A stretch of DNA of 64,000 bases from Candidatus Bipolaricaulota bacterium (GTDB lineage: Bacteria; Bipolaricaulota; Bipolaricaulia; M55B111). The notes under the pieces are model-generated. The model did not search any database. It was not told the origin of the DNA and saw only the letters and a list, made by a program, of their open reading frames with translations. The position numbers and the translations under genes were made by a program. The DNA is taken from positions 44,940 through 108,939 of the forward strand of contig JAGYME010000001.1 of assembly GCA_018400715.1 (NCBI GenBank), written 5' to 3'. Of this stretch, positions 25,832 through 57,291 are shown piece by piece. Every line of letters begins with the position of its first letter. Positions within the stretch are counted from its first letter, which is position 1.

Positions 25832-27022
25832 ATGAATATTACGGCTACGAAGCTGAAGACGGTTATGTTGCTGGGGATGTTCTTTTTTTTGCTCGCTTGC
25901 TCCGCTACGGTTTTTGGTCAGTCCTCCGATGACGGTTGGGGGCCATACCTCACTGTCGGGAAGGGTCCTGCAATAGTGGTCAACTGGAAGACCGATAAAC
26001 AATGGGCGGGAGAGGTCTCCTACTCGGCCGCATCCCCGGGTCCGGATGAGGAGAGTTTCACGAAATTGGAGAGAGAAACCGGGCCGGTCCAATTTCATCA
26101 CGTGCTGTTAGACGACCTGAAGGGAGGGACCGAATACGAATACGAGGTAAAGGGAAGTGAGGGTCCGTCTTCATATTACTTCAGAAGCCTCTCGGATGAC
26201 CCTCAAGAATTTGCGTTCTTCGTCTACGGCGATAATCGGACTTGCGTACAGAGACACCGGATGCTCTCCATCTGGATGGCGATGGATAGCTGGGACCCGA
26301 CCTTCATATTTCATACGGGAGACCTGGTAGAGCGGCCCACTCCCTCACGCTGGGCGGACTTCTTTTGGGCGATTGAACCGTTTAGCCGGTCTACCCCGCT
26401 GGTGCCCGTGCTGGGAAATCACGAAATGTATCACGGGAGCTATTTTGATGCCTTCTCTCTACCGACCGAAGACGGCGTCTATAAGAGAGGGTGGTATTCG
26501 TTCGAATACGGCCCGGTAAACTTCGTAATCCTAGACTCGAACGTAAATGAAATTGGATTATCCAAGTTCCTAGAGCAGACGGAATGGCTTAAGCGGGAGC
26601 TGGAAGGTCAGACGAGGGAGTACACCGTAGTCTTCTTTCATCACCCGATTTACTCCTCCGGATACTCGTCAGGTGTGGATTCCGGGCTGGCCGAGAGTTG
26701 GGGGAGCCTGTTTGAGAAACACGACGTCGACCTCGTCTTCAACGGACACGTGCACGCCTACGAGCGGCTCGTCAAGGACGGGGTAACCTACGTCGTCACC
26801 GGGGGCGGGGGCGCCCCCACGGACAACATATCTTCCAGGCTTGATATCTCCAAGGCGGCCCAGGGAGACTCCCTCCATTACGTCAGGGTCTCCGTTACGG
26901 AAACGGGGTTGGAACTTGAGACGGTGGAGGTCGCCCGGGTAAATCGCGAAGGAGAGTCCGGTAGAGTTGGGTGCGACGCCGAACTGTCTGAAGGTAGGGC
27001 GATAATCGACGATAATTATTAG
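25832..27022 (+). CDS. secreted metallophosphoesterase (purple-acid-phosphatase-like)
   Basis: GGAGGAA RBS and signal peptide MNITATKLKTVMLLGMFFFLLACSA. GDNR, HTGDLVE, GNHE, GHVHAYER metallophosphatase motifs. The TAG stop is completed by the first bases of the MITE. Confidence 0.85.
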   Translation: MNITATKLKTVMLLGMFFFLLACSATVFGQSSDDGWGPYLTVGKGPAIVVNWKTDKQWAGEVSYSAASPGPDEESFTKLERETGPVQFHHVLLDDLKGGTEYEYEVKGSEGPSSYYFRSLSDDPQEFAFFVYGDNRTCVQRHRMLSIWMAMDSWDPTFIFHTGDLVERPTPSRWADFFWAIEPFSRSTPLVPVLGNHEMYHGSYFDAFSLPTEDGVYKRGWYSFEYGPVNFVILDSNVNEIGLSKFLEQTEWLKRELEGQTREYTVVFFHHPIYSSGYSSGVDSGLAESWGSLFEKHDVDLVFNGHVHAYERLVKDGVTYVVTGGGGAPTDNISSRLDISKAAQGDSLHYVRVSVTETGLELETVEVARVNREGESGRVGCDAELSEGRAIIDDNY

Positions 27023-27125
27023 GGACGGTGCTTGACATTTTGACAATTTGGGCAAGTCCCTTTGCTAATTAATTCCCAATAGACCGGCTGTTTAGAATAA
27101 TGTCAAAATGTCAAGCACCGTCCCT
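27021..27125. mobile_element. MITE/REPIN-like element copy 1 (105 bp; 25-bp perfect TIRs AGGGACGGTGCTTGACATTTTGACA)
   Basis: Left end 27021-27045 equals the reverse complement of 27101-27125. The core is about 80% identical to copy 2. Confidence 0.9.
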
Positions 27126-27133
27126 CGATTTCA

Positions 27134-27544
27134 TCAATCGCAGATGTTTAACCTCTCGTCTTCGTCCACCGGTACCCCACAGGACTGGAGGAACTCCGGT
27201 TTGCGCTGGATTACTCTGCAGATCTCACATATCCTGCTGGGCAAGTCGTCAACCCGTCCTTCGACGAGGTCCCTGGCGAGCTTCTCTACCCTGCTGTATA
27301 CCTCCTCGTGTCTCGTGTAACTTCTTCCCCGTTTTTCCCTAACGTACTGGGAGACGCCGGCCTGACTTATGCCGAGTAGGTCGCCGACTTCCTGCTGGGT
27401 TATATCCATTCTTACCATCTCCCTGGCAAGACAGCCACGGATGCAGGGCACAATGTACCAAACGGCAACCTCGCAGGGTTGCTTGTGAACAAGTTTTTTT
27501 TCTTCTTCCTCCTGAGCCTTCTGTTCGTCGTTTGTTCCTGCCAT
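27134..27544 (-). CDS. XRE-type HTH transcriptional regulator with N- and C-terminal Cys pairs (putative metal/redox-binding)
   Basis: QQEVGDLLGISQAGVSQYVREKRG helix-turn-helix; CEVAVWYIVPCIRGC and CEICRVIQRKPEFLQSC motifs. Confidence 0.6.
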   Translation of the reverse strand: MAGTNDEQKAQEEEEKKLVHKQPCEVAVWYIVPCIRGCLAREMVRMDITQQEVGDLLGISQAGVSQYVREKRGRSYTRHEEVYSRVEKLARDLVEGRVDDLPSRICEICRVIQRKPEFLQSCGVPVDEDERLNICD

Positions 27545-27667: not shown

Positions 27668-27695
27668 TTGACATTATTATTACAATTGTTATAAT
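27668..27695 (+). promoter_or_regulatory. sigma70-type promoter TTGACA-16-TATAAT with embedded palindrome ACAATTGT, upstream of 27823
   Basis: Consensus hexamers read directly. Followed by perfect palindromes ATTGCGATCGCAAT (27697-27710) and AATTTGCAAATT (27708-27719). Confidence 0.55.
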
Positions 27696-27822
27696 GATTG
27701 CGATCGCAATTTGCAAATTAACCCCGGGCCATTGTCTCGGGTGTTTCAGCCGAGCGCAGAGGGAAAACCGAAAACACTCAATCTGAGGAGATTGAACCAC
27801 TCAGGGTAGCTCGAATGAAAGG

Positions 27823-28407
27823 ATGAAAACTATACTAGATTTACAGACAACCGAAGAGGCAGCGAATAAGAGCGGGGGTGCCGAGGATGAGAAGATAGTC
27901 CGGTCGTTGACCCCCGTTATCATCGTCGGCCGCGAGGACCTCGCTGAAGAGTACGGTGAAGAGATAGAACTACCGGAAGTTAGACTAGAAGACCAAACCG
28001 GGGGAAATGGGAGGAGTAGAAACTCCCAGAAACCAGTGGAAGTTGACGTCGCCCGGGCGTGGAAGGCCGCAAACGAATGGATACAGGAACTCGTAGTGTA
28101 TCGGGACGAACGTGTACGGAAGAAAATCCACGAAAACCGGGTTAAGGACGAGACAAACCACTACCGAGGCGTAAAGACCGAAGAAAAGTTCAGATGGCAG
28201 TACGATGAAGAGACCATGAAGGACCTCAGGCCGATTTACCGACCGGTAAAGGAAAAGTTGATTGAGGATCTGGGCAATCCTAAGCGGTCAGCGTTTGCTT
28301 CCCTTTTCCCGCACGAGTTCGACGATTTGGGGCTCAGTGGCCGGGCCAGAAGAGCTGTCCGTGACCTGAAGGCAGTCTTTGGCGAGGATATTTTGTTGAA
28401 ATCTTAA
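27823..28407 (+). CDS. hypothetical protein (194 aa, charged, no signal peptide)
   Basis: ORF with AAGGA then ATG; no family recognised. Confidence 0.5.
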   Translation: MKTILDLQTTEEAANKSGGAEDEKIVRSLTPVIIVGREDLAEEYGEEIELPEVRLEDQTGGNGRSRNSQKPVEVDVARAWKAANEWIQELVVYRDERVRKKIHENRVKDETNHYRGVKTEEKFRWQYDEETMKDLRPIYRPVKEKLIEDLGNPKRSAFASLFPHEFDDLGLSGRARRAVRDLKAVFGEDILLKS

Positions 28408-28501
28408 TCTTTTTCAACGAGGGGTGATCCCATAGACCAACTCCCGACCCGGAGCATTATTTTGATTCATTCTTATACCAGAAACTTGGAGGTATTTTAA
28501 C

Positions 28502-29074
28502 ATGACAGAGAAGAAAGACGTAGAAACAGAAGGCGGCGTACTCGAAAACCTAAATCGCCGGGACTTTATTAAGGGTGCTGCCGCAGCAGTCGGCGGTCTG
28601 GCGTTTAGCTCGCTTGCGATTACGAACTTTGAGGCCGCTGCGGCGAACGGACAGGACTACGTTATAGTCACCGAGGTCGTTAAGGGAAGTGCGGGCGCCG
28701 TTGGCGCTCCCTGTGAGCTAACGAGCGTCTTCAAGAAGGGCGAGCAGGTCGTGTGGCACGCTGTCCTATTTAGCGGCAAGACGGGCGAAAAGCTAAACGA
28801 CCACGGGGAGATGCAAAAGCGCGGCGTAAAGGTCCAGGTAGAGCTGGAAAACGGAAAGACGATTGATATGCACCACGGGGAGCACCCGCCAAGCGGAAGC
28901 CCCAAGATCTACTACTGGGCTGGTGCCTGGAAGATCTCACCTGGTGCACCGACAGGCAAGATGACTTATAAGATTACGGCCAAGGACAAGGAAGGGCGGA
29001 CGGGGACCCTTAACATGTTTGGGAAAAAGGACGTAGACACCTTCCCAAGGGCGCTGACGATAGAGAATCGATAA
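28502..29074 (+). CDS. Tat-secreted hypothetical protein (190 aa)
   Basis: Twin-arginine signal NRRDFIKGAAAAVGGLAFSSLA. Confidence 0.6.
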   Translation: MTEKKDVETEGGVLENLNRRDFIKGAAAAVGGLAFSSLAITNFEAAAANGQDYVIVTEVVKGSAGAVGAPCELTSVFKKGEQVVWHAVLFSGKTGEKLNDHGEMQKRGVKVQVELENGKTIDMHHGEHPPSGSPKIYYWAGAWKISPGAPTGKMTYKITAKDKEGRTGTLNMFGKKDVDTFPRALTIENR

Positions 29075-29098
29075 AACGGCCAACAGGAACTCCTCGGT

Positions 29099-29140
29099 AA
29101 AGGGGGCCAGGTCTGGTCCTGGCCCCCTTTACCCTTTTAC
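29099..29140 (+). terminator. rho-independent terminator (13-bp stem AAAGGGGGCCAGG / CCTGGCCCCCTTT plus ACCCTTTTAC)
   Basis: Perfect inverted repeat with a 6-nt loop and a T-rich tail, directly after the stop of 28502..29074. Confidence 0.7.
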
Positions 29141-29154
29141 AAGGACGATATAAT

Positions 29155-30621
29155 ATGGACGAGAAGGACACAAACAGTGGAATAATTCGGGACTTGAACG
29201 AGATGCCCACTCCGGAGACCGGGTTTCAGGGACAGCTCAAGTGCAGTACGGACGAAGCGGAAGTAGGGGATACCGTTGAAATCACCGGTCTGGATCTGCC
29301 CGAGGAGGGTGAATTTCAGCTCCTGTGGAGGTCTTACAGCGTTGACTGGGATATGGAGAGACGGTCGGACGGAATTATCTGGAGGCGGTTCTTCGGGTTT
29401 GCGCACAGAGAAGTCCAGAGGTCCCTGGCTGAGGTGAGGACGGACCCGAACGGACGCTTTTCCCGGGAGTTTGCGGTACCGGAGGACTTCGGCGGACTTC
29501 ACGACATATATCTCATTGACGAAACGCGGCGGATCAACAAGGTCGGCCTCCGGATAGCCCCCAGTTTCGACGTCACTCCGGATTCAGTACCTTTGGGCCA
29601 ACCGATTACAATTACCGCCAAGGGGCTGCCACTTCCAGTTGCCGACTCCGTGGACAACCCCCCATATCACGTCTACTACGACAACAAGTACACGGGACTT
29701 ATAAGTCCCGTAACGCCGGACGGGACGACAAGTTTTACAATCCCTGCGACGGGGGAGAAGGGAACGCACGTGATCGACGTGGAGAGGTGCCCGTTTGGCA
29801 ACGCCCATTCCTACCGGCAGACCCATATAGGGTTGATATCCCTACCCGGGACCCCGGACCTGTCCTGGACATTTGAGTTGACGGGTGGCGAGCCGAACCT
29901 CCCCCCGCCGATCGAAGAGCAGACTCCCGCTCCGGTGATGAGACAGGGAGAAGAGGCGCCCGCAGAGAAGAATCCATCTCTGTGGACTGAGGAACGGGCG
30001 ATACCGGTAACCGGTACGGTGAACCTTAGCGGGGTTGGGTTCCCGCAGGACGCGGACGTAAAGATCGCCTGGTCACAGCTCGAGGGTAGTAACCTGCGCG
30101 AGGAGAGGTTTTCCGAGCGAGAAGCGGTCGTAGTCTGGGCGGAGGCCGACGGTGAGGGAAGATTTTCAGCGCAGATGGCCCCCATGCCGGCGACCGTCCA
30201 GGGTGGCCCCCATCCGATAAGCGCTTACGTTGAAGGAGAGAAGGTAGCAACTGCTTCAGTTATCGTCCTCCCCCAATTCAAGGAACTTGACCCCGATAGT
30301 GGACCCCCCGGGACGCAGATTACGGTAAACGGGGAGGGCGTGGGCTGGAACGAGATGTGGAATCAGGTGACGATCCTCTACGACAACTCCTACATAGGTT
30401 ACGTCTGTGGTGGGGATATCCCGGGGGTGGTAGAGGGAAAGCTCAGAGCGACGGGCCAGCCCGGCTGGCACATCATCGACCTCTACCCGACCATCCAGAA
30501 ACAGAGAAATTTCGCCGACGAGGCGTTTGAGATCCCGTTTATCTATCGGTTGCCGTTTTTAAACTGGGACTCCCACCCACAGGGTTATCATTTTAGGTAC
30601 GCGTTTCGGGTTGAAGAGTGA
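29155..30621 (+). CDS. hypothetical protein with Ig-like/IPT-like repeats (488 aa)
   Basis: Repeated ...GxPITITAKGLP... and GPPGTQITVNGEG segments; no signal peptide. Confidence 0.5.
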   Translation: MDEKDTNSGIIRDLNEMPTPETGFQGQLKCSTDEAEVGDTVEITGLDLPEEGEFQLLWRSYSVDWDMERRSDGIIWRRFFGFAHREVQRSLAEVRTDPNGRFSREFAVPEDFGGLHDIYLIDETRRINKVGLRIAPSFDVTPDSVPLGQPITITAKGLPLPVADSVDNPPYHVYYDNKYTGLISPVTPDGTTSFTIPATGEKGTHVIDVERCPFGNAHSYRQTHIGLISLPGTPDLSWTFELTGGEPNLPPPIEEQTPAPVMRQGEEAPAEKNPSLWTEERAIPVTGTVNLSGVGFPQDADVKIAWSQLEGSNLREERFSEREAVVVWAEADGEGRFSAQMAPMPATVQGGPHPISAYVEGEKVATASVIVLPQFKELDPDSGPPGTQITVNGEGVGWNEMWNQVTILYDNSYIGYVCGGDIPGVVEGKLRATGQPGWHIIDLYPTIQKQRNFADEAFEIPFIYRLPFLNWDSHPQGYHFRYAFRVEE

Positions 30622-31973
30622 GGTGGCTGACTTTGTGTGAAGACGACAAGAACACTGGAAAGAAATCCCTGACCAGACGGAGTTTGCTGAGGATAGCCGG
30701 CGGTAGCTTGCTCTCGCTATCCCTCCCATTTTACGCGGGTGAATTCGTCTCGGGTGCTGAGAACACGTTGAAGGTGGGGGGAATATTTTCCCTGACCGGG
30801 CCCAACTCTCCGGTGGGCAGGACTATACGGGATGGTGCGAAGTTGGCCATCCGGAGAGTAAATTCTTCCGGTGGAATATCCGGAACGATACCGCTGAAAC
30901 TGGACGTCAGGGATGGGGAGACGAGCCAAACCGGCGCCTCGGACGCGGCGCGGAAGCTAGCGAACCGGAAGGAGGTCAGCTTTGTCTTGGGCCCTCTAAT
31001 CGGCACTCATGGGGCAGCCAGCCAGCCGATCCTGGCCGCCGCCGGGATACCGCAAATCTTCTTCGGGACCGCGGTGGGGTTTACCGAGCGCCACGGGGAA
31101 TATCCGCTCTCGGTCCGGTTTGGAACACAGACTGCACTCCAGACCGCTCCCGTGTTGAAGTACGCCCTCAACGAACGAGGGGATGGAGATTTATTTTTGC
31201 TGGCCCCGAACAACCAGCAGGGCCGGGACTTCGACAGAGTTATCTCCGCCCAGACAGGGAGGTTGCAGGGTGCTGATCTTGTCGGTTCCGAGTACTACCC
31301 ACCGTTCAACCGAGACTTTTCTTCACTATTTGCGAAGGCAGTCAACTCCGGCGCTGATGGACTGATAGTCGGTACGGGCATTCCTGCGGACCTGGTCTCT
31401 CTCGCCAGGGAGTACCGTCGTCAGGGGGTAAGCTTCGATGACTTCGGTTATTACACTGGCCAGACGCCCAATGGATCGGTCGGTTTCTTCGAACAGGTCG
31501 TGGAGCGGGGACTTGGAGACGGGATAATTTTCTCCTGGCACTACGAGAGCGCGAATTACGCACGGGAGTTCGACCGCGATAATCCGCCCGAAGGAGTGGA
31601 GCTCATGGAGCGGGCGTTCCTGGAGGAATTTGGTTCTTACCCCGACTCCCCTCCTGCTGCCAGCTGGGGCTGGGGGAGTATAATGATTCTCAAGCAGGCG
31701 ATCGAAAGACTCGTCGAGGCCCGAGGAGAGGATTCGGTAGTTTCCTCCTTGAAAACTGGGAAACTCCCCCAAGATACTATCAACTACATCCTGCCCGAGC
31801 CCGGTACTGAAGTGACGGGACCGGTGTTTTACACGCCATTTGGCAACGCAGGATTTCTTAGCTGCGGTCAGTTTGACGTAAGGTTGGGGGTTGCCACGTT
31901 TAAAGACAGAGAGATATTGCTGCTCAAGGATCGGGGCTACGGTGAAGATATCATGGTGCCACTGTGTCCGTAG
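30618..31973 (+). CDS. ABC transporter substrate-binding protein, branched-chain amino acid (LivJ/LivK, cluster 4) family. Start may be TTG at 30633.
   Basis: Tat-like leader TRRSLLRIAGGSLLSLSLPFYAG; periplasmic-binding fold I motifs; GAGGTGG RBS before 30633. Confidence 0.75.
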   Translation: MRWLTLCEDDKNTGKKSLTRRSLLRIAGGSLLSLSLPFYAGEFVSGAENTLKVGGIFSLTGPNSPVGRTIRDGAKLAIRRVNSSGGISGTIPLKLDVRDGETSQTGASDAARKLANRKEVSFVLGPLIGTHGAASQPILAAAGIPQIFFGTAVGFTERHGEYPLSVRFGTQTALQTAPVLKYALNERGDGDLFLLAPNNQQGRDFDRVISAQTGRLQGADLVGSEYYPPFNRDFSSLFAKAVNSGADGLIVGTGIPADLVSLAREYRRQGVSFDDFGYYTGQTPNGSVGFFEQVVERGLGDGIIFSWHYESANYAREFDRDNPPEGVELMERAFLEEFGSYPDSPPAASWGWGSIMILKQAIERLVEARGEDSVVSSLKTGKLPQDTINYILPEPGTEVTGPVFYTPFGNAGFLSCGQFDVRLGVATFKDREILLLKDRGYGEDIMVPLCP

Positions 31974-31989
31974 ACGGAGAGGCCGACCG

Positions 31990-33903
31990 ATGAACCCAGC
32001 CCTTTTGCTGCCGAAGTTTTTGTTCGACGGTCTGTTTCTGGGTAGCTACTACGGCCTTATCGCCCTGGGTATTGCGATAATCTTTGGAATACTTAAAGTG
32101 GGAGACGTCGCTCAAGGTGGTCTGTTCGCTCTCGGTGCATATCTCACCTATACGACCGTGGAAACTCTAGGTCTGAACTACTTCTGGGCGCCGGCGGTAG
32201 TCCTGCCGGCCACGGCCGGATTAAGCGTCCTGTATGGAACGACAATTTATCGGAAGCTACGCAAAAACGGTATCGCGGCGACCTTCCTCGGGGCAGTTAG
32301 CCTCCTCTTAATTATTCAGAGCCTCCTTGCGGTCGGCTACGGCGAGAGGGTCAAGACGATTGAGTCCCCTCTCGTTCCCGCCAGCGTAAACGTCGGGGGC
32401 GCGTCGATCTACTCCCACAAAATTCTTGTAATCCTTGTTACCGCGGCGGTCGCCAGTCTCGTCTGGTACGGCGTGAGGAAGACAACCTGGGGCAGGTCAC
32501 TCCGTGCCCTGTCTCAAAACTACGAGATTGCCGTAATGTCGGGAATAAATCCAACGGTTACGGTCGGTGTCGCCTTTGCTCTTGCCGGCGGACTAGCGGG
32601 GTTTTCCGGGTTTTTGACCGCGCCCGTCTACTCGATTACACCGTTTACGGGAAGGTTGACGGTCCTAAAGGCATTCGTGGTCTCCCGAATCGGAGGCGGT
32701 TCGGTCCCCGCGGTACTCGGGCTGGCGCTGGCTCTGGGCCTGTCGGAATCGCTGACCTCCGCGTACTTTCTTGGTGAGTTGAGTAACCTCATTCCGTTTC
32801 TCCTCTTGATCGGGGTCGCGCTGTTCAGGCCGGGCGTCCTTGGTCCCGAGGAAAGAACGTGGATCGAAAGTTCGAAGGTTGAAGGCGAGAGTTCCGCCTT
32901 TCCTACCTTCGACGGATACCTGACCCTCTTGTTACCTGCGGTATTCCTGATACCGGTACTGGTTGACCTGCCCGCCTACTTTACCGACCTGGGGATCACC
33001 GTCGCGGCGTTATCGAGCGGGGTAATGAGCGTGGACCTTTTGTACGGCTACGTCGGGTTGCCCTCGCTCGTCCAGGGGGCCTTCTTCGGGGTCGGGGCCT
33101 ATGCGGCGACGACGGTAATCGTGGAAACGGGCGGTGGCCTGGCCTTAGCTCTCCTTGTCGCCGTTGTGTCCGCCTCCGTCCTCGGAGCCGTGGTGGGGGT
33201 TATGGGCCTGCGGGCGGGACGGCACTGGACCTCGTTTACGTTCATCATGACGATCGTCTTCACGGTCGTTGCCACGAATTTAGTCTCACTTACCGGTGGT
33301 CCCGGCGGGATCCCGGGGATAACGGAGGTTTTTATTCGGCTCCCTGTTCTGGGACGTGTCGACTTAAATCCGTTTACGAGCAGGTGGAGCTTCTATTTAA
33401 TCGTCGCCTCCGTCTTCGCGATTCTCTTCTGGCTGAAGGGCCTGATCGTGAGGTCACGGTTCGGCCACTCGCTCGAGGCGATACGGGAGGACGAGAGGCT
33501 GGCGGAATCGATAGGAATACCGGTCGGAAGGTACAAGCTAGTTGCCTTCACGATAAGCGCTGCCGTTGCCGGGATCGGGGGAGCGCTTTACGCCGGTTAC
33601 ACGACCTATATTAACCCGGAAATGTTTAACTTCGTTACCTCGTTCAGGTTCCTGATGATGGATAGGATAGGCGGGGTGGGGACCCCGCTCGGCCCCGTGG
33701 TGGGCCCTTTATTAATTACCCTGCTCGAGGACCTGACCGAACCCCTCAACTCCTATTTGGGTCAGATTATCTTTAGCGGAGCGCTGATCGTCACCCTCGC
33801 CTGGCTCCCGGGCGGGATTGTTGGTCTCGCCGGGCGGGTCCTGAGTAAGTTTTTCCCCGGCGGTAACGCGGGCGGTACGGCAGAAGAACGAGGGGGTGAG
33901 TAA
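31990..33903 (+). CDS. ABC transporter permease, fused LivH-LivM type (two BPD domains)
   Basis: MNPALLLPKFLFDGLFLGSYYGLIALGIAIIFG is a LivH-like start and a second LivM-like half follows. The longer ORF start at 31891 overlapping the SBP is rejected. Confidence 0.8.
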   Translation: MNPALLLPKFLFDGLFLGSYYGLIALGIAIIFGILKVGDVAQGGLFALGAYLTYTTVETLGLNYFWAPAVVLPATAGLSVLYGTTIYRKLRKNGIAATFLGAVSLLLIIQSLLAVGYGERVKTIESPLVPASVNVGGASIYSHKILVILVTAAVASLVWYGVRKTTWGRSLRALSQNYEIAVMSGINPTVTVGVAFALAGGLAGFSGFLTAPVYSITPFTGRLTVLKAFVVSRIGGGSVPAVLGLALALGLSESLTSAYFLGELSNLIPFLLLIGVALFRPGVLGPEERTWIESSKVEGESSAFPTFDGYLTLLLPAVFLIPVLVDLPAYFTDLGITVAALSSGVMSVDLLYGYVGLPSLVQGAFFGVGAYAATTVIVETGGGLALALLVAVVSASVLGAVVGVMGLRAGRHWTSFTFIMTIVFTVVATNLVSLTGGPGGIPGITEVFIRLPVLGRVDLNPFTSRWSFYLIVASVFAILFWLKGLIVRSRFGHSLEAIREDERLAESIGIPVGRYKLVAFTISAAVAGIGGALYAGYTTYINPEMFNFVTSFRFLMMDRIGGVGTPLGPVVGPLLITLLEDLTEPLNSYLGQIIFSGALIVTLAWLPGGIVGLAGRVLSKFFPGGNAGGTAEERGGE

Positions 33904-33924
33904 TCGTCTCGAGGGACAAAGCCT

Positions 33925-34596
33925 ATGTCTGAAATTCTGCGGGTGGAAGGGCTGAGCAAAGAGTTTGGAGGTCTAACGGCGGTGGACGGAGTTAACCTGA
34001 CCGTCAACGGTGGAAAGATCGTTGGTCTGGTGGGTCCAAATGGAGCGGGAAAGACGACATTGTTCAACCTGATCAGCGGGTTTCTCGCCCCTTCCTCCGG
34101 GGACATGTACTTTCGCGGGAAGAGAATTAACCGCTGGAGCGTCCGCAGGCGTGTTTTGGCGGGGATCACGAGGACGTTTCAGAAGAGCAGAGTATTTCCC
34201 GGTTTTTCCGTTAGGGAAAACGTACTCACCGCGGCCCACGGTTCCGGCGGCGGCGGCGAGTTCTACGATGAAAAGGACGACTTCCTTGACTGGCTGCTGG
34301 GAACGACGAAGCTTGCCGGTTACGGGGACCGGCACGCCCGGGACCTTTCCTTCAGTTACAGGCGGAGGCTGGAACTGACTATCGCGGTCGCCACCCGCCC
34401 TGAACTGCTCCTGCTCGACGAGCCCTTCGGCGGGACGGGGGTGGGAGACTTAAGCGATTTGTCCCGGCTCCTCCAGCTCCTCCGGGACGAGGGGATGACG
34501 TTACTTCTTGTTGAGCACAACATCTCCGCCGTGGCGGGGATCGCAGACAGGTTGATTTACATGGAGAAGGGGAGGTTGAGGATACCGAATGGATAG
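33925..34596 (+). CDS. ABC transporter ATP-binding protein (LivG-like) with degenerate signature motif
   Basis: Walker A GPNGAGKTT, Walker B LLLLDEP, H-loop VEHN. The signature region reads LSFSYRRRLE instead of LxYGQQRRLE. Confidence 0.8.
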   Translation: MSEILRVEGLSKEFGGLTAVDGVNLTVNGGKIVGLVGPNGAGKTTLFNLISGFLAPSSGDMYFRGKRINRWSVRRRVLAGITRTFQKSRVFPGFSVRENVLTAAHGSGGGGEFYDEKDDFLDWLLGTTKLAGYGDRHARDLSFSYRRRLELTIAVATRPELLLLDEPFGGTGVGDLSDLSRLLQLLRDEGMTLLLVEHNISAVAGIADRLIYMEKGRLRIPNG

Positions 34597-35254
34597 GGCT
34601 CTGGGCGTAACTGACGTGACTCTGGAATCGCCGGCCGGGAGGATACTTGACGGCGTGAACCTGGCGGTATCCTCTGGAGAGATCGTGGCACTGGTGGGGG
34701 AGAACGGCTCCGGGAAGACGATGACGCTGAGGTCGGTAGCCGGACTGGAGCCTCGAGCGTCTGGAAGGATCCGATTTATGAGCGAAGATATCACTGACCT
34801 TAGCCCTGAACGTAGGGTGAGGCGGGGAATAAGTTACTGTCCGTCGGAGGGGAACGTATTCCCGCGGATGAGCGTGAGGGAGAACCTGGCCACGGGAGCA
34901 GCCCTTCTCCCAGGAGACCTGGATGAGGGTATACGAGACGTTTATGAGATGTTTCCCTCTCTCGAGCGGTTAAGCACTCGTCGAGCTAGCTCCCTGAGCG
35001 GTGGCGAGCAGCAGGTCCTCGCGCTGGCCAGGGCGATAACGGTCAGCCCGGAGTTGCTCCTGCTTGACGAGTTCTCCCTCGGACTCTCACAGGTGGTCTT
35101 AAGTAGGATGGCGGGGGTGGTAAGGGAAATTAACGCATCAGGCGTTACGGTCCTCTTCGTGGAACAGAACCTACGCCTGGCTGCGGATTTGTCGGACCGA
35201 GACTACTACATGTACGAAGGTAGAGTTGTGGATGAAGACGTTCTGAGACCTTGA
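34589..35254 (+). CDS. ABC transporter ATP-binding protein (LivF-like)
   Basis: GENGSGKTM Walker A, LSGGEQQ signature, LLLLDEFS Walker B. Confidence 0.8.
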
Positions 35255-35270
35255 CGGTAAAAGGAGAAAT

Positions 35271-37001
35271 ATGGAGATATTCGAGCACGACTTGCTAATT
35301 GTTGGTGGCGGTGCGGCCGGGTTGAGGGCCGCGATTGCGGCTCGCGAGCACGTTGACGACGTCGGGATAATCTCGAAGGTCAACGTCTTACGGTCGCACT
35401 CGGTGACGGCCCAGGGAGGGATCTCTGCGCCACTGGGCAACACCGGCGAGGGCGTTGACGACAGTTGGAGGGTCCACTTTGAGGACACGGTCCGTGGTGG
35501 AGATGGACTCGTGGACCACGATGCCTGTGAGATTCTGACGAAGGGCGCGAGCGGAACGGTTTTAGAGCTGGATAACATGGGCGTGCCGTTCAATCGGACG
35601 GAGGACGGGAGGCTTGACCAGCGTCCCTTTGGTGGTCACAGCTTGCCGAGATCCCTGTATGCCGCGGACCGGACCGGCCACGGGATTACCTACGCTCTGT
35701 ACGGGGAAAACGTCCGGCTTGACAACGCCGTTTACAACGAGTTCTTCCTGCTTGACCTCGTGGCGGACGGGGCGAGAGTCAATGGGTTGACGGCTTATAA
35801 CATGAAGTCCGGGGAAGTGGTCGGTTTCAGGGGGAAGTCGGTCGTCCTTGCCACAGGTGGGTGCACTCAGGCGTTCGCGCATACCACAAGCGGGGCGGCT
35901 AGTACGGGAGACGGCCTAGGTATCGCGATGAGAAACGGGATACCGCTTGAGGATATGGAGTTCATCCAGTTTCATCCCACCGGACTTCCCGGAAGCGGGA
36001 TACTGATCTCGGAGGCCGCACGGGGTGAGGGCGGCTATCTGATTAACGACGACGGGGAAAGGTTCATGAAACGCTACGACCCCGAGAAGATGGAACTCTC
36101 ATCGCGGGACCGGGTCGTGCGGGGAATGCAGCGGGAAATCGAACGTGGTAAAGGGATCGACGGGGAGGACTACCTCCACCTTGACCTGACTCACCTATCC
36201 CGGCGTACTCTGGAAGAGAAGCTACCGACGATCAGCCAGATAGCTGAGGACTTTGCCAAGGTCGACCCTTCGGAGAGGCCGATTCCCGTGCGGCCGACCG
36301 CCCACTACTGCATGGGAGGAATACCCGTAACACTAAACGGCCGCGTCAAGGGGTCAAGTTGGGGAAACACCTGGGATAACCTGTTTGCGGCCGGAGAAGC
36401 TGCTTGTTTGAGCGTCCACGGGGCCAACCGGCTGGGGACTAACTCCCTGCTGGAGGCTGTGGTTTTCGGAAAGAGGATCGGGGCGGTGGCTGGAAGGACC
36501 GCGGAGGAGGGCAGTTTTGGTAAGTTGCCACGAGAGACGCTGAACCAGCAAGAAAAATATCTCACGGAGCTGAGGGAAAAAGATGGCACGGTCCGATTGG
36601 GAGAGATAAAGTCACGCCTGCGGGAGTTAACCTGGAATAAGTGCGGGGTGTTCAGAAATCAATCGGATCTGGAAGAAGCGAATGATGAGATTTATGAACT
36701 CAGGCGTACCTTCTCAGAAGAGCTTACCCTGGACGACCGGGGTTGTAAGTTCAACACCGAACTGCGCTCTGCTCTGGAGCTCCGTAATCTCCTGGAATTC
36801 GTCCCAGCAGTTCTTCTGGGCGCTTACAAGAGGACTGAAAGCCGGGGAGCCCATTACAGGGAGGACTATCCCGAGAAGGACGATGGAAACTGGGCGGTCC
36901 ATTCTTATGTTGTCAGGACAAACGAGGGACGCTACGGTGTGGACTATAGACCGGTCCGAAATGATACGGGCCGCGGAACAACAGACGAGGGAGGTGAGTG
37001 A
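35271..37001 (+). CDS. sdhA: succinate dehydrogenase / fumarate reductase flavoprotein subunit
   Basis: [17 protein letters not shown] fold, [10 protein letters not shown] covalent-FAD His region, HPTG and RLGTNSL catalytic motifs. AAGGAG RBS; 17 bp after the end of livF. Confidence 0.85.
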
Positions 37002-37002
37002 A

Positions 37003-37725
37003 GTGAAGGTTACGTTTAGGATAAGCCGCTACGACCCGGAAACGAACGAGGGCAGTTATGTTGAAGATTTTTTACTGGAGGTAGAGGAGTATGAACTCAC
37101 TGAGGTCACCGTACTTGACGCCTTAGTGGAGATAAAGGAGGACCAGGACGGAAGCCTTACGTTCAGGCACGGGTGCGGGCACGGTTCGTGTGGGTCATGC
37201 GCGGTCTTGATAAACGAAAAGAACCGCCTGGCCTGTGAGACGCATCTCGACGATCTGGAGTTGGATGAGAAAACCGTAGTGGAGGTGTCATCCCTGCCCG
37301 GGTTCCCGACGATAAAGGACCTGGTGGTGGACATGGATAACTTCTTTCGCAACGACAGGTTGGCCCGACCGTTCATCTCCGGCGAGGATGAGAGATCGGG
37401 ACCGACCGAGACTGAGCAGACTCCGGGCGAGCTAAGGAGGATATTGGAGGCGACCGAGTGCATTAACTGCGGAGCCTGCACCGCCTCTTGTCCGACTTAC
37501 TGGGAAAACGAGGGCTACCTGGGGCCGGCTGCGCTCGTCAGGGCCTATCGGTGGATGGAGGATAGCAGAAACTCCGAGATCGAGGAGCGGCTGGCCGCCC
37601 TCGATGACGAGAAGGACGGGGTCTGGGGGTGCAACAAGTTTTTCAACTGTCTCGAGGCCTGCCCCAAGGAGATAGATACGGTGGGAATTATCGAGGCGTT
37701 GAAGCGCTCGGTCATCACCTCTTAG
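37003..37725 (+). CDS. sdhB: succinate dehydrogenase / fumarate reductase iron-sulfur subunit
   Basis: CGHGSCGSCAV ([2Fe-2S]), CINCGACTASCP ([4Fe-4S]), CNKFFNCLEACP ([3Fe-4S]). GTG start after GGAGGTGA; the ORF-track N-terminal extension is rejected. Confidence 0.8.
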   Translation: MKVTFRISRYDPETNEGSYVEDFLLEVEEYELTEVTVLDALVEIKEDQDGSLTFRHGCGHGSCGSCAVLINEKNRLACETHLDDLELDEKTVVEVSSLPGFPTIKDLVVDMDNFFRNDRLARPFISGEDERSGPTETEQTPGELRRILEATECINCGACTASCPTYWENEGYLGPAALVRAYRWMEDSRNSEIEERLAALDDEKDGVWGCNKFFNCLEACPKEIDTVGIIEALKRSVITS

Positions 37726-37744
37726 GTTGGTAATAGCATGCTGA

Positions 37745-37764
37745 TATATTACAATTGTTATAAT
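37745..37764 (+). promoter_or_regulatory. extended -10 promoter TATATTACAATTGT-TATAAT (TGn-TATAAT), sharing an 18-bp motif with 27677-27695
   Basis: TATTACAATTGTTATAAT is identical at both loci; it lies 39 bp upstream of the 37803 start. Confidence 0.45.
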
Positions 37765-37802: not shown

Positions 37803-38300
37803 ATGGAAACGCGGACTGTGAACGCTGAAAGTTATTCCCTGGGGATGAGGTTTACCATGCTCCTGGCCAGGATCGGTACGGGGGCGAGTTTGATCGGAGT
37901 TGGTCTCAGGTTGCTCGTTGGGGGCGGTTGGGACGCCTGGAATGTGGTGGGCGTCTTCCTGCCGACTACGTACCCCCGCGGACCAGTCGGGAAGATACTT
38001 CTTAACTTCTGGGGCAACCCGGCCGTAATCCAGCTGTTGCTATGGGCTCTAGTCCTCGTTGGGCTGGCACTGGTCTTCGGGCTCGCGCTCAGACTGGCAA
38101 GCTACGGAGGGATGCTGATAATGCTGTTGATGTATCTGGCGGTCGTCCCCCCGGGATCGGCAATTATAAGCCAGCAGATCATTTACCTGTTTTTATTGAT
38201 GGTACTTGCGGTAGGGGAAGCTGGGACGGTATTAGGATTCGACTCGTTTCTCCTTCCACTGGAGGAAAAGTATCCATGGGTAAGGTACTTCCTCCGTTAA
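37803..38300 (+). CDS. DoxX-like small integral membrane protein (4 TM)
   Basis: 165 aa, four hydrophobic helices with a Gly-rich pattern resembling the DoxX/DoxD family; GAGGAGGT RBS. Confidence 0.45.
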   Translation: METRTVNAESYSLGMRFTMLLARIGTGASLIGVGLRLLVGGGWDAWNVVGVFLPTTYPRGPVGKILLNFWGNPAVIQLLLWALVLVGLALVFGLALRLASYGGMLIMLLMYLAVVPPGSAIISQQIIYLFLLMVLAVGEAGTVLGFDSFLLPLEEKYPWVRYFLR

Positions 38301-38364
38301 CTTGATATGGCCTTTATTATGCCAACGAAGTCAGAAAATCTGAATTTCTTTAGGAGCGTTGAAC

Positions 38365-39171
38365 ATGGAGAATAAAGGAAAGAAGACAGCCCTGATCACC
38401 GGGGCGTCACGGGGAATTGGTTACGAGATAGCGAAGCTCGCTGCTCAGAACGGCTACAATTTGGCCATCGTGAGTCGCTCTCTGGAAAACCTCGTCTCCG
38501 TTAAAAAGAAAATCGAGAGGGAGTACGGCGTCAACGTTGAGCCAATCGCGGGTGACTTAAGTTACACCGAGACGGCAGAGAGGATATTTGACCGCTTGAG
38601 CGGTGCGGATATGTGGGTTGATCTACTCGTAAACAACGCGGGTAGGGGTCAAATGGGGGAGTTCATCGAGACGGACTGGGAAGTAGACCGGGAGATGATG
38701 CGGTTAAACATGGACGCGGTGGTTTACCTGACCGACCTGTTCCTGCCACAGATGATAGAGAGGGGACAGGGAAAGATCTTAAACGTTTCATCGCTGGCCG
38801 CATTTGCTCCGGGTCCCCTCATGGCCCTCTATTACGCGACAAAGGCCTTCGTTCAGAATTTTTCCGAAGGACTGGCCGAGGAGGTCGCAGATAAGGGGGC
38901 GACCGTGACCGCCCTTTCTCCTGGACCGGTGGACACGGGGTTCGAGATAAAAGGAGTAAAGCCATCTGAGAACGGAAACAAATCTGTCAGGGTGTCCCCT
39001 GAGTTGGCCGCAAAAGTCGGATACAACGGCGTCATGAGCGGCAAGCGAGTCGTCGTCCCCGGCGGGGCGGTCTCAGTTGCCCCACAGCTGGCCCGCCTCT
39101 TACCGCGGAGGACAGTAAGCAGCTTCATCAGTTGGCTAAACAACCGCCTATTGTACAGGGACGGTGCTTGA
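38365..39171 (+). CDS. SDR-family oxidoreductase; last four codons and stop lie inside MITE copy 2
   Basis: TGASRGIG and NNAG motifs, S...YxxxK. AGGAG 8 nt before the ATG at 38365. The stop TGA at 39169-39171 is inside the TIR. Confidence 0.8.
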   Translation: MENKGKKTALITGASRGIGYEIAKLAAQNGYNLAIVSRSLENLVSVKKKIEREYGVNVEPIAGDLSYTETAERIFDRLSGADMWVDLLVNNAGRGQMGEFIETDWEVDREMMRLNMDAVVYLTDLFLPQMIERGQGKILNVSSLAAFAPGPLMALYYATKAFVQNFSEGLAEEVADKGATVTALSPGPVDTGFEIKGVKPSENGNKSVRVSPELAAKVGYNGVMSGKRVVVPGGAVSVAPQLARLLPRRTVSSFISWLNNRLLYRDGA

Positions 39172-39261
39172 CATTTTGACAATTTTGTCAAGTTCATTTG
39201 CTATGTAATTCCCTATAGGCCGTCTGTTTCGGATAATGTCAAAATGTCAAGCACCGTCCCT
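39157..39261. mobile_element. MITE/REPIN-like element copy 2 (105 bp)
   Basis: TIRs 39157-39181 and 39237-39261 are perfect inverted copies; same orientation and a similar core to copy 1. Confidence 0.9.
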
Positions 39262-39322
39262 CCATTAACTAGTTAATGGACTGTCGACTTAGCATGTCAC
39301 ATAGTGTTATTTGTGATATGAC

Positions 39323-40195
39323 ATGCGGACGGCAAGAAGAACATATAAGGGTGCCTTCCATCACGTAATGAACCGTGGTCACGAAGGCAAGATGATATTT
39401 TCTTCCAGAGGCCTCAAACGAAAGTTCCTAAAGTTCCTGGTCGATCAGGCCGACAAGACGAAGATTAGGGTATTTGCTTATTGCCTTATGAACAATCATT
39501 ATCATTTGGTCCTACAGAATAGTTCCGGGAAACTTTCTAACTTTATGCGCAATCTAAACGGATCCTTTGGGACGACGTATAGGAATAGGGAGGGAGGCAA
39601 AGGTTATGTCTTTCAGAACCGCTTCAAATCCACGCTTATCACGACAGATCATTATCTCTCGGCTGTAATAGCATATACGTTGTTGAATCCTCTTCGAGCT
39701 GGTCTGGTAGAAGATCCGTATAATTACGAATGGTCGAGTATCAATGAATACTTCTCTAACGACAAGAAGACCGTCACCGATAGGGAATTTGTTGAAAATC
39801 TCTTCATGTCCCAGGACGGGCTGAGAAGACATCTATCACATTGGGTTGGGAGAGAACTACCCGTGAAAGACACCGATCAAGGCGAAGTGATCGGCGAAGA
39901 GAAGGGGCCGATCAGAAGGACGGGGATCATTGACAGGGCAAAAGAGGATGTGCAAAGATTTCCCAAGGTACAGGTTGTTATCGCCAGATTCGAAATGGAG
40001 AAAGGTGTCGAGTTGAGCGATATAGATCTCTCCAGCCACAATGGAAAGCGATTGAGGGCGGAGCTATTGGTTCGCCTCAAGGACGATGCCGGACTAACTT
40101 ATAGAGAGATCAGTGAAATGTCGATATTTGAAACTCTGAGTTATTCTTCTCTTGGGAAAATATATCAGCGAACGAAGAGAAGACTGGCAACGTAG
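39323..40195 (+). CDS. IS200/IS605-family HuH Y1 transposase (TnpA), REP-associated tyrosine transposase (RAYT)-like, 290 aa with C-terminal HTH-like extension
   Basis: YHVMNRGHEG...AYCLMNNHYHLVLQ (HuH motif)...YVFQNRFKS...YTLLNPLRAGLV...YEWSS (catalytic Tyr region). Flanked by MITE copies 2 and 3. Confidence 0.8.
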   Translation: MRTARRTYKGAFHHVMNRGHEGKMIFSSRGLKRKFLKFLVDQADKTKIRVFAYCLMNNHYHLVLQNSSGKLSNFMRNLNGSFGTTYRNREGGKGYVFQNRFKSTLITTDHYLSAVIAYTLLNPLRAGLVEDPYNYEWSSINEYFSNDKKTVTDREFVENLFMSQDGLRRHLSHWVGRELPVKDTDQGEVIGEEKGPIRRTGIIDRAKEDVQRFPKVQVVIARFEMEKGVELSDIDLSSHNGKRLRAELLVRLKDDAGLTYREISEMSIFETLSYSSLGKIYQRTKRRLAT

Positions 40196-40331: not shown

Positions 40332-40625
40332 ATGAAGAATAATGTTGAAGATAATGACCAGGGCTTACAGCTGGCCTCCCCCGTGGTAGTTTCCTGTCGT
40401 GATGAAAACGGAATGACAATGCGCTGGTAGTTGCATACGCGTCCAACTGTAGTTTTGACCCCCCCAATGTTAATTGTTGGCATCGTCCCTTCTAGATATT
40501 CATATCATATGGTAAAAGAAACTGGTGCCTACGTGGTTAACCTGGTATCTGAAGACCTCAAGGAAGAATTTGATTATCTCGGGCACAATAGCGGCCGAGA
40601 TGTGTTTAGTAGGGACGGGGCTTGA
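40332..40625 (+). pseudogene. flavin-reductase-like (FMN-binding split-barrel) gene remnant; in-frame TAG at 40428 and truncated by MITE copy 3
   Basis: SPVVVSCRDENGMTMRW-stop-LHTRPTVVLTPPMLIVGIVPSRYSYHMVKETGAYVVNLVSEDLKEEFDYLG resembles the N-terminal half of flavin reductases. The reading frame terminates ...RDGA* inside the TIR. Confidence 0.5.
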
Positions 40626-40715
40626 CAGTTTGACATTTCTAGCAACTCCCGTTGCTGTAAGCGTTTCGCTGTAATTCGACCGTAAAATATTGTCAAAATG
40701 TCAAGCCCCGTCCCT
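40611..40715. mobile_element. MITE/REPIN-like element copy 3 (105 bp; TIR variant GGGG on both arms)
   Basis: AGGGACGGGGCTTGACA...TGTCAAGCCCCGTCCCT; core unrelated to copies 1 and 2. Confidence 0.9.
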
Positions 40716-57187: not shown

Positions 57188-57291
57188 AGGGACGGGGCTT
57201 GACATTTTGACAATATATCCAGGTTAATTTTACGGTAAGGGCGGCTGGTTGGCCTTCACAAAAAAATGTCAAAATGTCAAGCTCCGTCCCT
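57188..57291. mobile_element. MITE/REPIN-like element copy 4 (104 bp; one TIR mismatch)
   Basis: AGGGACGGGGCTTGACATTTTGACA ... TGTCAAAATGTCAAGCTCCGTCCCT. Preceded by a 15-bp tandem duplication ATTATAACAGGGACG. Confidence 0.85.

Follow-up and report, generated by a model that had tools for sequence, protein, structure and literature searches.

Organization of the locus

The window analyzed here, i.e., the whole stretch of 64,000 nucleotides (64 kb), carries on its plus strand an operon (27823-37725) that extends from a hypothetical gene, hyp194, to sdhB. As the first operon gene, hyp194 (27823-28407) is followed by genes encoding a TAT-signal protein (28502-29074), a 488-aa TIG-domain protein (29155-30621), a Peripla_BP_6 binding protein (30618-31973), a fused LivHM-type permease (31891-33903), two ABC ATPases (33925-34596 and 34589-35254), SdhA/FrdA (35271-37001) and SdhB/FrdB, all in the same orientation; the ORF of the latter spans 36682-37725, and its true start is probably near 37000. 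Because these genes are separated by short gaps or overlap, and because convincing terminators are absent, the operon is predicted to be cotranscribed, and its promoter, P1, probably serves ten genes, beyond gene 27823 alone. Informative PDB or Pfam relatives of the TAT and TIG proteins were not found. Downstream of sdhB, and likewise on the plus strand, lie the genes for a 165-aa DoxX-like membrane protein (37803-38300), the conserved target of a second promoter, P2, and for an SDR oxidoreductase (38359-39171). The DoxX-like protein has no Pfam match of its own, and its homologue is named DoxX/SURF4 family in one source. Divergent from the operon is the gene for a 136-aa XRE/Cys regulator (27134-27544, minus strand).

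The same gene order is found in Bipolaricaulota orthologues, where a 181-195-aa hypothetical protein, the TAT protein and the 488-aa TIG protein precede an HAAT-type ABC transporter (binding protein, fused permease and two ATPases), sdhA and sdhB, and at most orthologous loci a 165-aa DoxX-like gene lies next to sdhB. The SDR gene accompanies the DoxX-like gene in the window only, so that the single regulon envisaged in the initial annotation for gene 27823 and the DoxX/SDR genes stands for gene 27823 and the DoxX-like gene, which are conserved, and not for the SDR gene. Wherever an orthologous locus includes the upstream DNA, the regulator gene is divergent from the operon. Its other neighbor is a phosphoesterase gene in the window, and ArsR-type, HSP20 and glycosyltransferase genes are among its neighbors in orthologues; the ArsR-type neighbor is absent in the window and in one orthologous locus (L008). 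Additionally, an ArsP_1 permease gene adjoins the DoxX-like gene in several orthologues. No recognizable sulfur-metabolism gene lies within the Bipolaricaulota operon.

In the window and in several orthologous loci (L009, L011, L013, L017 and L019-L021), canonical sdhC/D anchor genes are found neither between sdhA and sdhB nor immediately next to the pair. Instead, sdhB is followed by a gene with its own promoter that encodes a conserved four-helix membrane protein of the DoxX-like type, and this protein may be an unusual membrane partner of the flavoprotein/Fe-S pair.

P1 (27668-27695, plus strand) consists of a -35 element TTGACA (27668-27673), a 16-nt spacer and a -10 element TATAAT (27690-27695). 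It was already described in the initial annotation as a consensus promoter, a description borne out by a 12/12 match and by the TG ahead of the -10 element, which gives the TG-extended -10 TGTTATAAT (27687-27695). In a promoter scan, P1 was the top promoter-like site across 22-42 kb of the window, and transcription from it would start near 27702. P2 (37727-37764, plus strand) lies within the 77-bp gap between sdhB and the DoxX-like gene and has a conserved -35-like TTGGTA (37727-37732), a 17-nt spacer and TACAAT (37750-37755); in the window genome, an additional TGTTATAAT is present at 37756-37764.

A 14-bp site shared by the two promoters

P1 and P2 share the 18-mer TATTACAATTGTTATAAT, exact copies of which are found at 27678-27695 and 37747-37764 of the 64-kb window, against an expectation of 0.04 in shuffles; a count of three was reached in none of 100 shuffles. 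The presence of this 18-mer at two loci thus agrees with what had been claimed, except that the second copy, said to start at 37745, begins at 37747, since the copies disagree at the two additional 5' positions. Comparison with orthologues (see below) places the function in the 14-bp near-palindrome ATTACAATTGTTAT rather than in the 18-mer, the TATAAT tail of which is specific to the window genome. The candidate operator at P1 (27679-27692) covers the spacer and the first -10 bases, and that at P2 (37748-37761) contains the TACAAT -10. Both have 0 mismatches to the W-consensus ATWACAATTGTWAT, and theirs are the only two promoter regions in the window that bear the motif. A HIP1-like or restriction-site meaning of GCGATCGC, of which the window holds 3 copies, was rejected.

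The site was followed across Bipolaricaulota by aligning both intergenic regions and by scanning 242 kb of DNA (the window plus the Bipolaricaulota loci). At <=1 mismatch, it occurs in these 242 kb only at the two orthologous promoter positions. At the P1 position, between the divergent regulator gene and the hyp194 operon, an identical 14-mer is present in 13 Bipolaricaulota loci, and at the P2 position, between sdhB and the DoxX-like gene, the site is found in 6 species and is invariant save for position 12 (T or G). The conserved unit across orthologues is the 14-mer ATTACAATT(G/a)T(T/g)AT, which is near-invariant over 19 instances within unconserved flanking DNA. Two loci that lack the DoxX-like gene (L023 and L024) also lack the P2 site. 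Collectively, this pattern of conservation argues for a genuine operator that selection has kept at two promoters of a single gene cluster.

The position of the site relative to the promoter differs among genomes. P1 in 11 orthologues reads TTGAAA/TTGACA-16-TATAAT-R-ATTACAATTGTTAT, so that the site spans about -5 to +9, and a degenerate in-phase copy (…ATTGTTAT) lies over the -10 element, 18 bp upstream of the site. The architecture of P2 is yTGGTAAT-N13-ATTACAATTGTkAT, in which the inner TACAAT is the -10 element behind a 17-nt spacer. Relative to the orthologues, P1 of the window has been remodeled, with the strong site in the spacer and -10 element and a further palindrome, ATTGCGATCGCAAT, 18 bp downstream (see below). 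At another locus (L016, 8360-8420), 14 extra nt separate the -10 element from the operator, which lies 18 nt downstream of it, and the insert, ATATGATTGTTAAT, resembles the motif; this suggests that operator copy number and phase shift through small duplications. The source genome of this locus also carries a second, paralogous TIG-protein cluster without a regulator. Because 80-270 bp separate the P1 operator from the likely promoter of the regulator itself, autoregulation is not evident in Bipolaricaulota.

The 18/18 identity of the window copies, which includes the TATAAT and the non-palindromic T at positions 3 and 12, could also mean that one duplicated or mobile promoter cassette was copied recently and that a shared regulator is absent. 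The window also hosts an active family of mobile 105-bp repeats, and 11 nt of the P1 -35 region match the repeat arm (see below). However, each site is independently conserved at the corresponding promoter of species whose proteins are only about 60% identical, the identity between the copies ends at the edges of the 18-mer, and the 14-mer recurs in unrelated lineages next to homologues of the regulator. The orthologue comparison largely refutes such copying, which we regard as hardly credible.

Two weaker matches were considered and not accepted, given that about 0.8 such sites are expected by chance in the scanned DNA. One is a weak candidate third site in the window, ATTACAATTGAAAC (2080-2093; 2 mismatches, left half-site perfect), located 10 nt ahead of the GTG listed as the start codon of a 154-aa ORF (2104-2568) whose N-terminus resembles a signal peptide, with a possible promoter TTGCGG-16-TACAAT. 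The other, also with 2 mismatches, comes from the paralogous TIG-protein cluster of the genome that holds L016 (L025, 16499-16512). There, a gene resembling peptidase_C39 and an unknown 404-aa gene are separated by DNA with the perfect palindrome ATAACAATTGTTAT, which may mark an additional regulon member or have arisen by chance.

Palindromes and repeat elements near P1

The initial annotation had also drawn attention to two overlapping perfect palindromes beyond P1. Both are present and each is unique in the window: ATTGCGATCGCAAT (27697-27710) begins 4 nt past the P1 operator (18 bp centre to centre), and the 12-bp AATTTGCAAATT (27708-27719) lies in AT-rich leader DNA. Nevertheless, the stack is not significant by itself, since palindromes of these lengths are common in the window, which holds 7 perfect palindromes with a length of 14 bp or more, where shuffles give 4.0 +/- 2.0, and 23 with a length of 12 bp or more, where shuffles give 14.3 +/- 4.3. 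Neither has a counterpart as a perfect palindrome in the Bipolaricaulota orthologues. ATTGCGATCGCAAT retains the outer ATT/AAT and the central AT of the operator and is spaced in phase, like the degenerate second site of the orthologues, with positions 4, 6, 9 and 11 changed. Among 59 sites of the wider regulator family (see below), 56 have A at position 4 and every one has T at position 11, while positions 6 and 9 vary. Because it deviates at these two (near-)invariant positions, ATTGCGATCGCAAT would be at best a weak auxiliary operator, and AATTTGCAAATT is probably a chance feature of the leader DNA. A riboswitch or other leader RNA in the P1 leader (27702-27825) was rejected (folding z = -0.95 versus shuffles; leader unconserved), and Rfam and tRNA scans of the whole window detected no RNA families or tRNAs.

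Repeat elements form a separate feature of this DNA. A 105-bp element is present in four copies (27021-27125, 39157-39261, 40611-40715 and 57188-57291) with 25-nt terminal inverted repeats, AGGGACGGTGCTTGACATTTTGACA, that are perfect in two copies and have 1-2 mismatches in the others. Two copies flank an IS200-like / REP-associated tyrosine transposase gene (39323-40195), and another lies just downstream of the regulator gene, where orthologues have the ArsR-type gene. Together, the element and the transposase gene look like a REPIN/RAYT system. The -35 region of P1, TTGACATTATT (27668-27678), is identical over 11 nt to the inner arm edge of the repeat (27096-27115); the remodeled P1 might come from a repeat-element remnant, or the match may be due to chance. 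In addition, a unique 20-bp perfect palindrome, TCCATTAACTAGTTAATGGA (39261-39280), directly adjoins one repeat copy, some 40 bp ahead of the transposase-like gene, and a 20-bp perfect palindrome within the TIG-domain gene, ACGGGACTTATAAGTCCCGT (29692-29711), was recorded in the terminator scan as a minus-strand terminator-like hairpin.

The XRE/Cys regulator and its family

The divergent gene had been annotated as encoding an XRE-HTH protein with two Cys clusters, and its product contains seven cysteines. The match of this protein to Pfam HTH_3 is weak (22.2 bits, just below the cut-off of 23), and relatives score above the cut-off (P0036, 30.3; P0099, 32.6; P0043, 27.4 bits). The AF2 model of the protein is all-helical (pLDDT 79.8). 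Its best Foldseek matches, to P22 c2, C.BclI and ClgR, are weak (E > 2, TM about 0.2-0.35), as is that to C.EcoT38IS, and NsrR is non-significant (E 5.7). Sequence and Foldseek searches retrieved no PDB relatives beyond generic HTH proteins. The regulator is probably a divergent member of the XRE superfamily.

A profile built on the regulator recovered 1814 cluster representatives at E <= 1e-3. The family shares the signature PCE...P-IR...(T/S)QxAVSQY...KRG...CxxC, every element of which is found in the window protein. Across 140 representatives, the recognition helix (SQAGVSQY in the window regulator) is almost invariant, with Y67 in 100%, S65 in 96% and A63 in 93%. Likewise, C24 is conserved in 91% and the CxxC (106/109) in about 85% of these representatives, and a C-terminal Cys is also part of the conserved set. 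Of the seven cysteines in the window protein, C24, C106 and C109 are conserved in the family and the others are at 34, 38, 122 and 135, with C34 and C38 restricted to Bipolaricaulota. Homologues with 51-61% identity come from Candidatus Bipolaricaulota MAGs, several of which originate from hypersaline settings, e.g., the Great Salt Lake. The family as a whole is large, mostly archaeal and apparently uncharacterized; a literature search of partial coverage, so that earlier work is possible, found no description of the family or its site.

Sites and target genes across the family

A metagenome scan with the family alignment yielded 432 relatives, the best 80 of which (32-65% identity, GC 20-58%) were analyzed. 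ATWACAATTGTWAT is present exactly at 26 sites in 25 of these loci (0.1 in local shuffles) and at <=1 mismatch at 59 sites in 47/80 loci (1.8 in local shuffles), and it is absent at this threshold from the remaining 33/80. All but two of the 59 sites lie upstream of the regulator gene (57 upstream, 2 downstream), although the flanks were of equal length. The half-site of ATWACAATTGTWAT is ATWACAA, and the consensus taken over the family, ATAACAATTGTTAT, is perfectly palindromic.

The genes directly downstream of these sites point to a common theme of sulfur, cysteine and Fe-S metabolism. Their Pfam families include PALP (cysteine synthase-like) and Hexapep (serine acetyltransferase-like), with 10 cases each, followed by NifU (4), rhodanese (3), ArsP_1 permease (3), radical-SAM/ThiS fusion (2), Nitro_FeMo-Co (2) and ThiF, thioredoxin and CysS (1 each). 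One example is a 43%-identical homologue from a 28%-GC organism, which is encoded within a cysK-cysE-regulator-cysS operon; the exact 14-mer ATTACAATTGTTAT is present in the 80-bp region upstream of cysK, and degenerate tandem copies lie ahead of a gene for a Cys/Met-metabolism PLP enzyme. Gene groups of the cysK-cysE-regulator type are those of Methanobacterium and Methanobacteriaceae, for which the sources name the protein just 'transcriptional regulator', and another family member is found in Methanonatronarchaeum. Many sites are on Methanobacterium-type contigs, and many continue into a TATA-like TTATATAAA, 20-35 nt ahead of the start codon, in a context that looks like an archaeal promoter.

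Tandem arrangements were also observed. On Methanobacterium-type contigs, two abutting 14-mers, ATAACAATTGTTAT and ATAACGATAGTTAT, lie directly 5' of cysK-cysE-regulator (L081, 872-899; abutting 14-mers also in L069, L075, L080, L082, L096, L097 and L099), and the site period is 14 bp, compared with 18 bp in Bipolaricaulota. Another locus (L109, 425-455), from the same metagenome as several Bipolaricaulota loci, encodes a 43%-identical regulator, some 200 bp ahead of which lies a pair of full sites with a spacing of 17 bp, ATTACAATCGTTAT-aat-ATAACAATTGTAAT; the sole other gene visible on this contig is a convergent one for a PAS-domain protein just downstream of the regulator.

The overlap of the site with promoter elements raises the question of whether the motif is itself part of the core promoter, for instance an extended -10, a TATA-like box or an alternative sigma site. 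Its right half, TTGTTATAAT, provides the TG-extended -10 of P1 in the window, TACAAT serves as the -10 element of P2, and sites in archaeal relatives run into TTATATAAA. Yet the position of the motif varies from spacer/-10 in the window to directly past TTGAAA-16-TATAAT in 11 orthologues and 18 nt past the -10 element in L016, it has dyad symmetry, it is kept in both bacteria and archaea despite their different basal transcription machineries, and it marks only two promoter regions of the 64-kb window. Such a role is very improbable in our judgment, and a protein-binding site remains the preferred reading of the motif.

Comparison with known regulators

The divergent XRE/Cys protein, already proposed as the binder of the motif in the initial annotation, remains by far the best candidate: it adjoins the site in every Bipolaricaulota orthologue, and the 14-mer accompanies its distant homologues, the neighboring genes of which are quite different. 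The family loci have just one shared element, the regulator gene, so that the motif follows the regulator, and a near-invariant recognition helix is matched by a near-invariant operator. The most familiar parallel is the Cro/C1 group (XRE, HTH_3), which includes the phage 434 and P22 repressors and ClgR. The likeness lies in the probable HTH_3-type helix-turn-helix and in a dyad-symmetric ACAA...TTGT site placed over the core promoter, in tandem in some promoters. In contrast to Cro/C1, the window family has extra helices with the conserved Cys set (C24, CxxC and the C-terminal Cys), its half-sites abut (ACAATTGT) rather than being separated, and it is mainly archaeal with metabolic targets.

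Sulfur and Fe-S status are sensed by regulators such as IscR, CymR (Rrf2 family) and SufR, and persulfides by CstR, SqrR and BigR. The analogy with these proteins is that of a small dimeric HTH repressor with Cys-based sensing, proposed here from sequence, and of similar targets, namely genes for cysteine synthesis, the NifU Fe-S scaffold and rhodanese sulfurtransferase. However, there is no homology, and both the DNA-binding fold and the operator sequence differ from those of IscR/CymR/SufR/CstR-type regulators. In agreement with this, domain searches with the window protein and 10 relatives gave no match to Rrf2, ArsR or CsoR domains, the Rrf2 group (IscR/CymR/NsrR) being defined by a winged-helix domain that carries a three-Cys ligand set for its cluster at the C-terminus.

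Restriction-modification controller (C) proteins are likewise small XRE-type proteins with tandem palindromic boxes at a divergent or their own promoter, but the regulator described here has an extra Cys-bearing C-terminal region, its targets are the transporter/sdh operon and, in relatives, cys genes, and no restriction endonuclease or methyltransferase genes lie next to the regulator in the window or among its orthologue neighbors. Zinc-finger HTH_3 antitoxins of the MqsA/YgiT type carry an N-terminal CxxC...CxxC zinc ribbon and a C-terminal HTH and have a partner toxin gene, whereas here a single conserved N-terminal Cys precedes the HTH and the CxxC is C-terminal, and there is no small toxin gene next to the window regulator.

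CopY/BlaI/MecI proteins deserve particular attention, since a cysteine-rich repressor of this type binds the cop box TACAnnTGTA (PMC7253601), and the operator core found here is similar (TACAATTGT). If a different transcription factor encoded elsewhere, such as a winged-helix repressor of this type, bound the motif, the XRE/Cys gene would be a mere neighbor. The Bipolaricaulota core TACAATTGTT resembles the cop box with 1 mismatch, TTACAATTGTAA occurs in the paper on the CopR-CopY operator (PMC7253601), and the proposed pairing of the XRE/Cys protein with the site comes from sequence comparison. However, the family consensus AACAATTGTT deviates from TACAnnTGTA at both outer positions, and the motif tracks the XRE/Cys gene over bacteria and archaea though the neighboring genes change completely. 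A second transcription factor that recurs next to the site was not seen, and the ArsR-type neighbor is missing from the window and L008. Furthermore, the Cys pattern is CxxC here and CxCx4CxC in CopY, copper-export genes are absent nearby, and the window protein and 10 relatives have no Pfam/NCBIfam match to the Penicillinase_R winged-helix domain. Binding by a different transcription factor is therefore a very unlikely explanation, and the CopY/BlaI, Rrf2, MqsA and R-M controller identities were all rejected, as the defining feature failed for each.

Proposed control circuit

Taken together, we consider it likely that ATTACAATTGTTAT is the operator of the regulator encoded at 27134-27544, and that this protein represses a local regulon with two promoters, probably in response to a sulfur-type signal. 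The regulator would most likely bind the 14-mer as a dimer through its HTH_3-type helix-turn-helix. Depending on the promoter, it would occupy the spacer and -10 element (P1 of the window), about -5 to +9 (P1 of the orthologues) or the TACAAT -10 (P2). Repression is proposed because the site overlaps core promoter elements in every instance; bound regulator should thus block RNA polymerase at P1, which would drive hyp194, the genes of the TAT protein, the TIG protein and the HAAT ABC transporter, and sdhAB, and at P2, which would drive the DoxX-like membrane protein.

The XRE/Cys protein might alternatively bind the same site and activate transcription, or play a dual role. In front of Methanobacterium-type cysK, the tandem sites precede the TATA-like box and overlap it only in part, a position used by some archaeal activators, and the -35 element of P2 is poor. 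At the bacterial promoters, however, the site lies over the -10 element or the start of transcription, a placement that does not fit class I or class II activation, and P1 is already a consensus promoter for which an activator is unneeded. Activation therefore appears unlikely, and repression is retained in the proposed circuit.

With regard to the signal, the initial annotation suggested a redox- or metal-responsive regulon. The family-wide cysteines make this plausible, but the targets of the family concern sulfur, cysteine and Fe-S instead of a generic response. A sulfur, thiol or Fe-S signal is likely because the family operator fronts genes for cysteine synthesis and for sulfur and Fe-S trafficking. 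The regulator may accordingly sense sulfur, cysteine, thiol-redox or Fe-S status at its Cys site, a step that we propose with lower confidence and that draws on the family target genes and on the analogy with IscR, CymR and SufR. For the Bipolaricaulota cluster, the link to sulfur would hold by family association.

Implications

A palindromic operator beside a repressor gene is ordinary, and the interest of this locus lies in the family to which its regulator belongs. With more than 1,800 sequence clusters and no solved structure, this family keeps one operator in bacteria and archaea. Tentatively, and with slightly less than even confidence, we propose that the window is an instance of an undescribed, mainly archaeal family of Cys-ligand XRE proteins that regulates cysteine biosynthesis (cysK-cysE), sulfur carriers (ThiS, ThiF and rhodanese) and Fe-S scaffolds in Methanobacteriales and other archaea through one near-universal 14-bp operator, ATAACAATTGTTAT, and that a halophilic Bipolaricaulota offshoot was re-wired to the transporter/succinate-dehydrogenase/DoxX cluster. 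To our knowledge, the regulation of sulfur assimilation in methanogens is poorly understood. If the proposal is true, the family would be a candidate for the long-sought transcriptional regulator of this pathway. The regulator-operator pair also allows regulon prediction across hundreds of uncultured genomes and, in Bipolaricaulota, would tie an uncharacterized cluster of secreted-protein, ABC-transporter, sdhAB and DoxX-like genes to a single control circuit.
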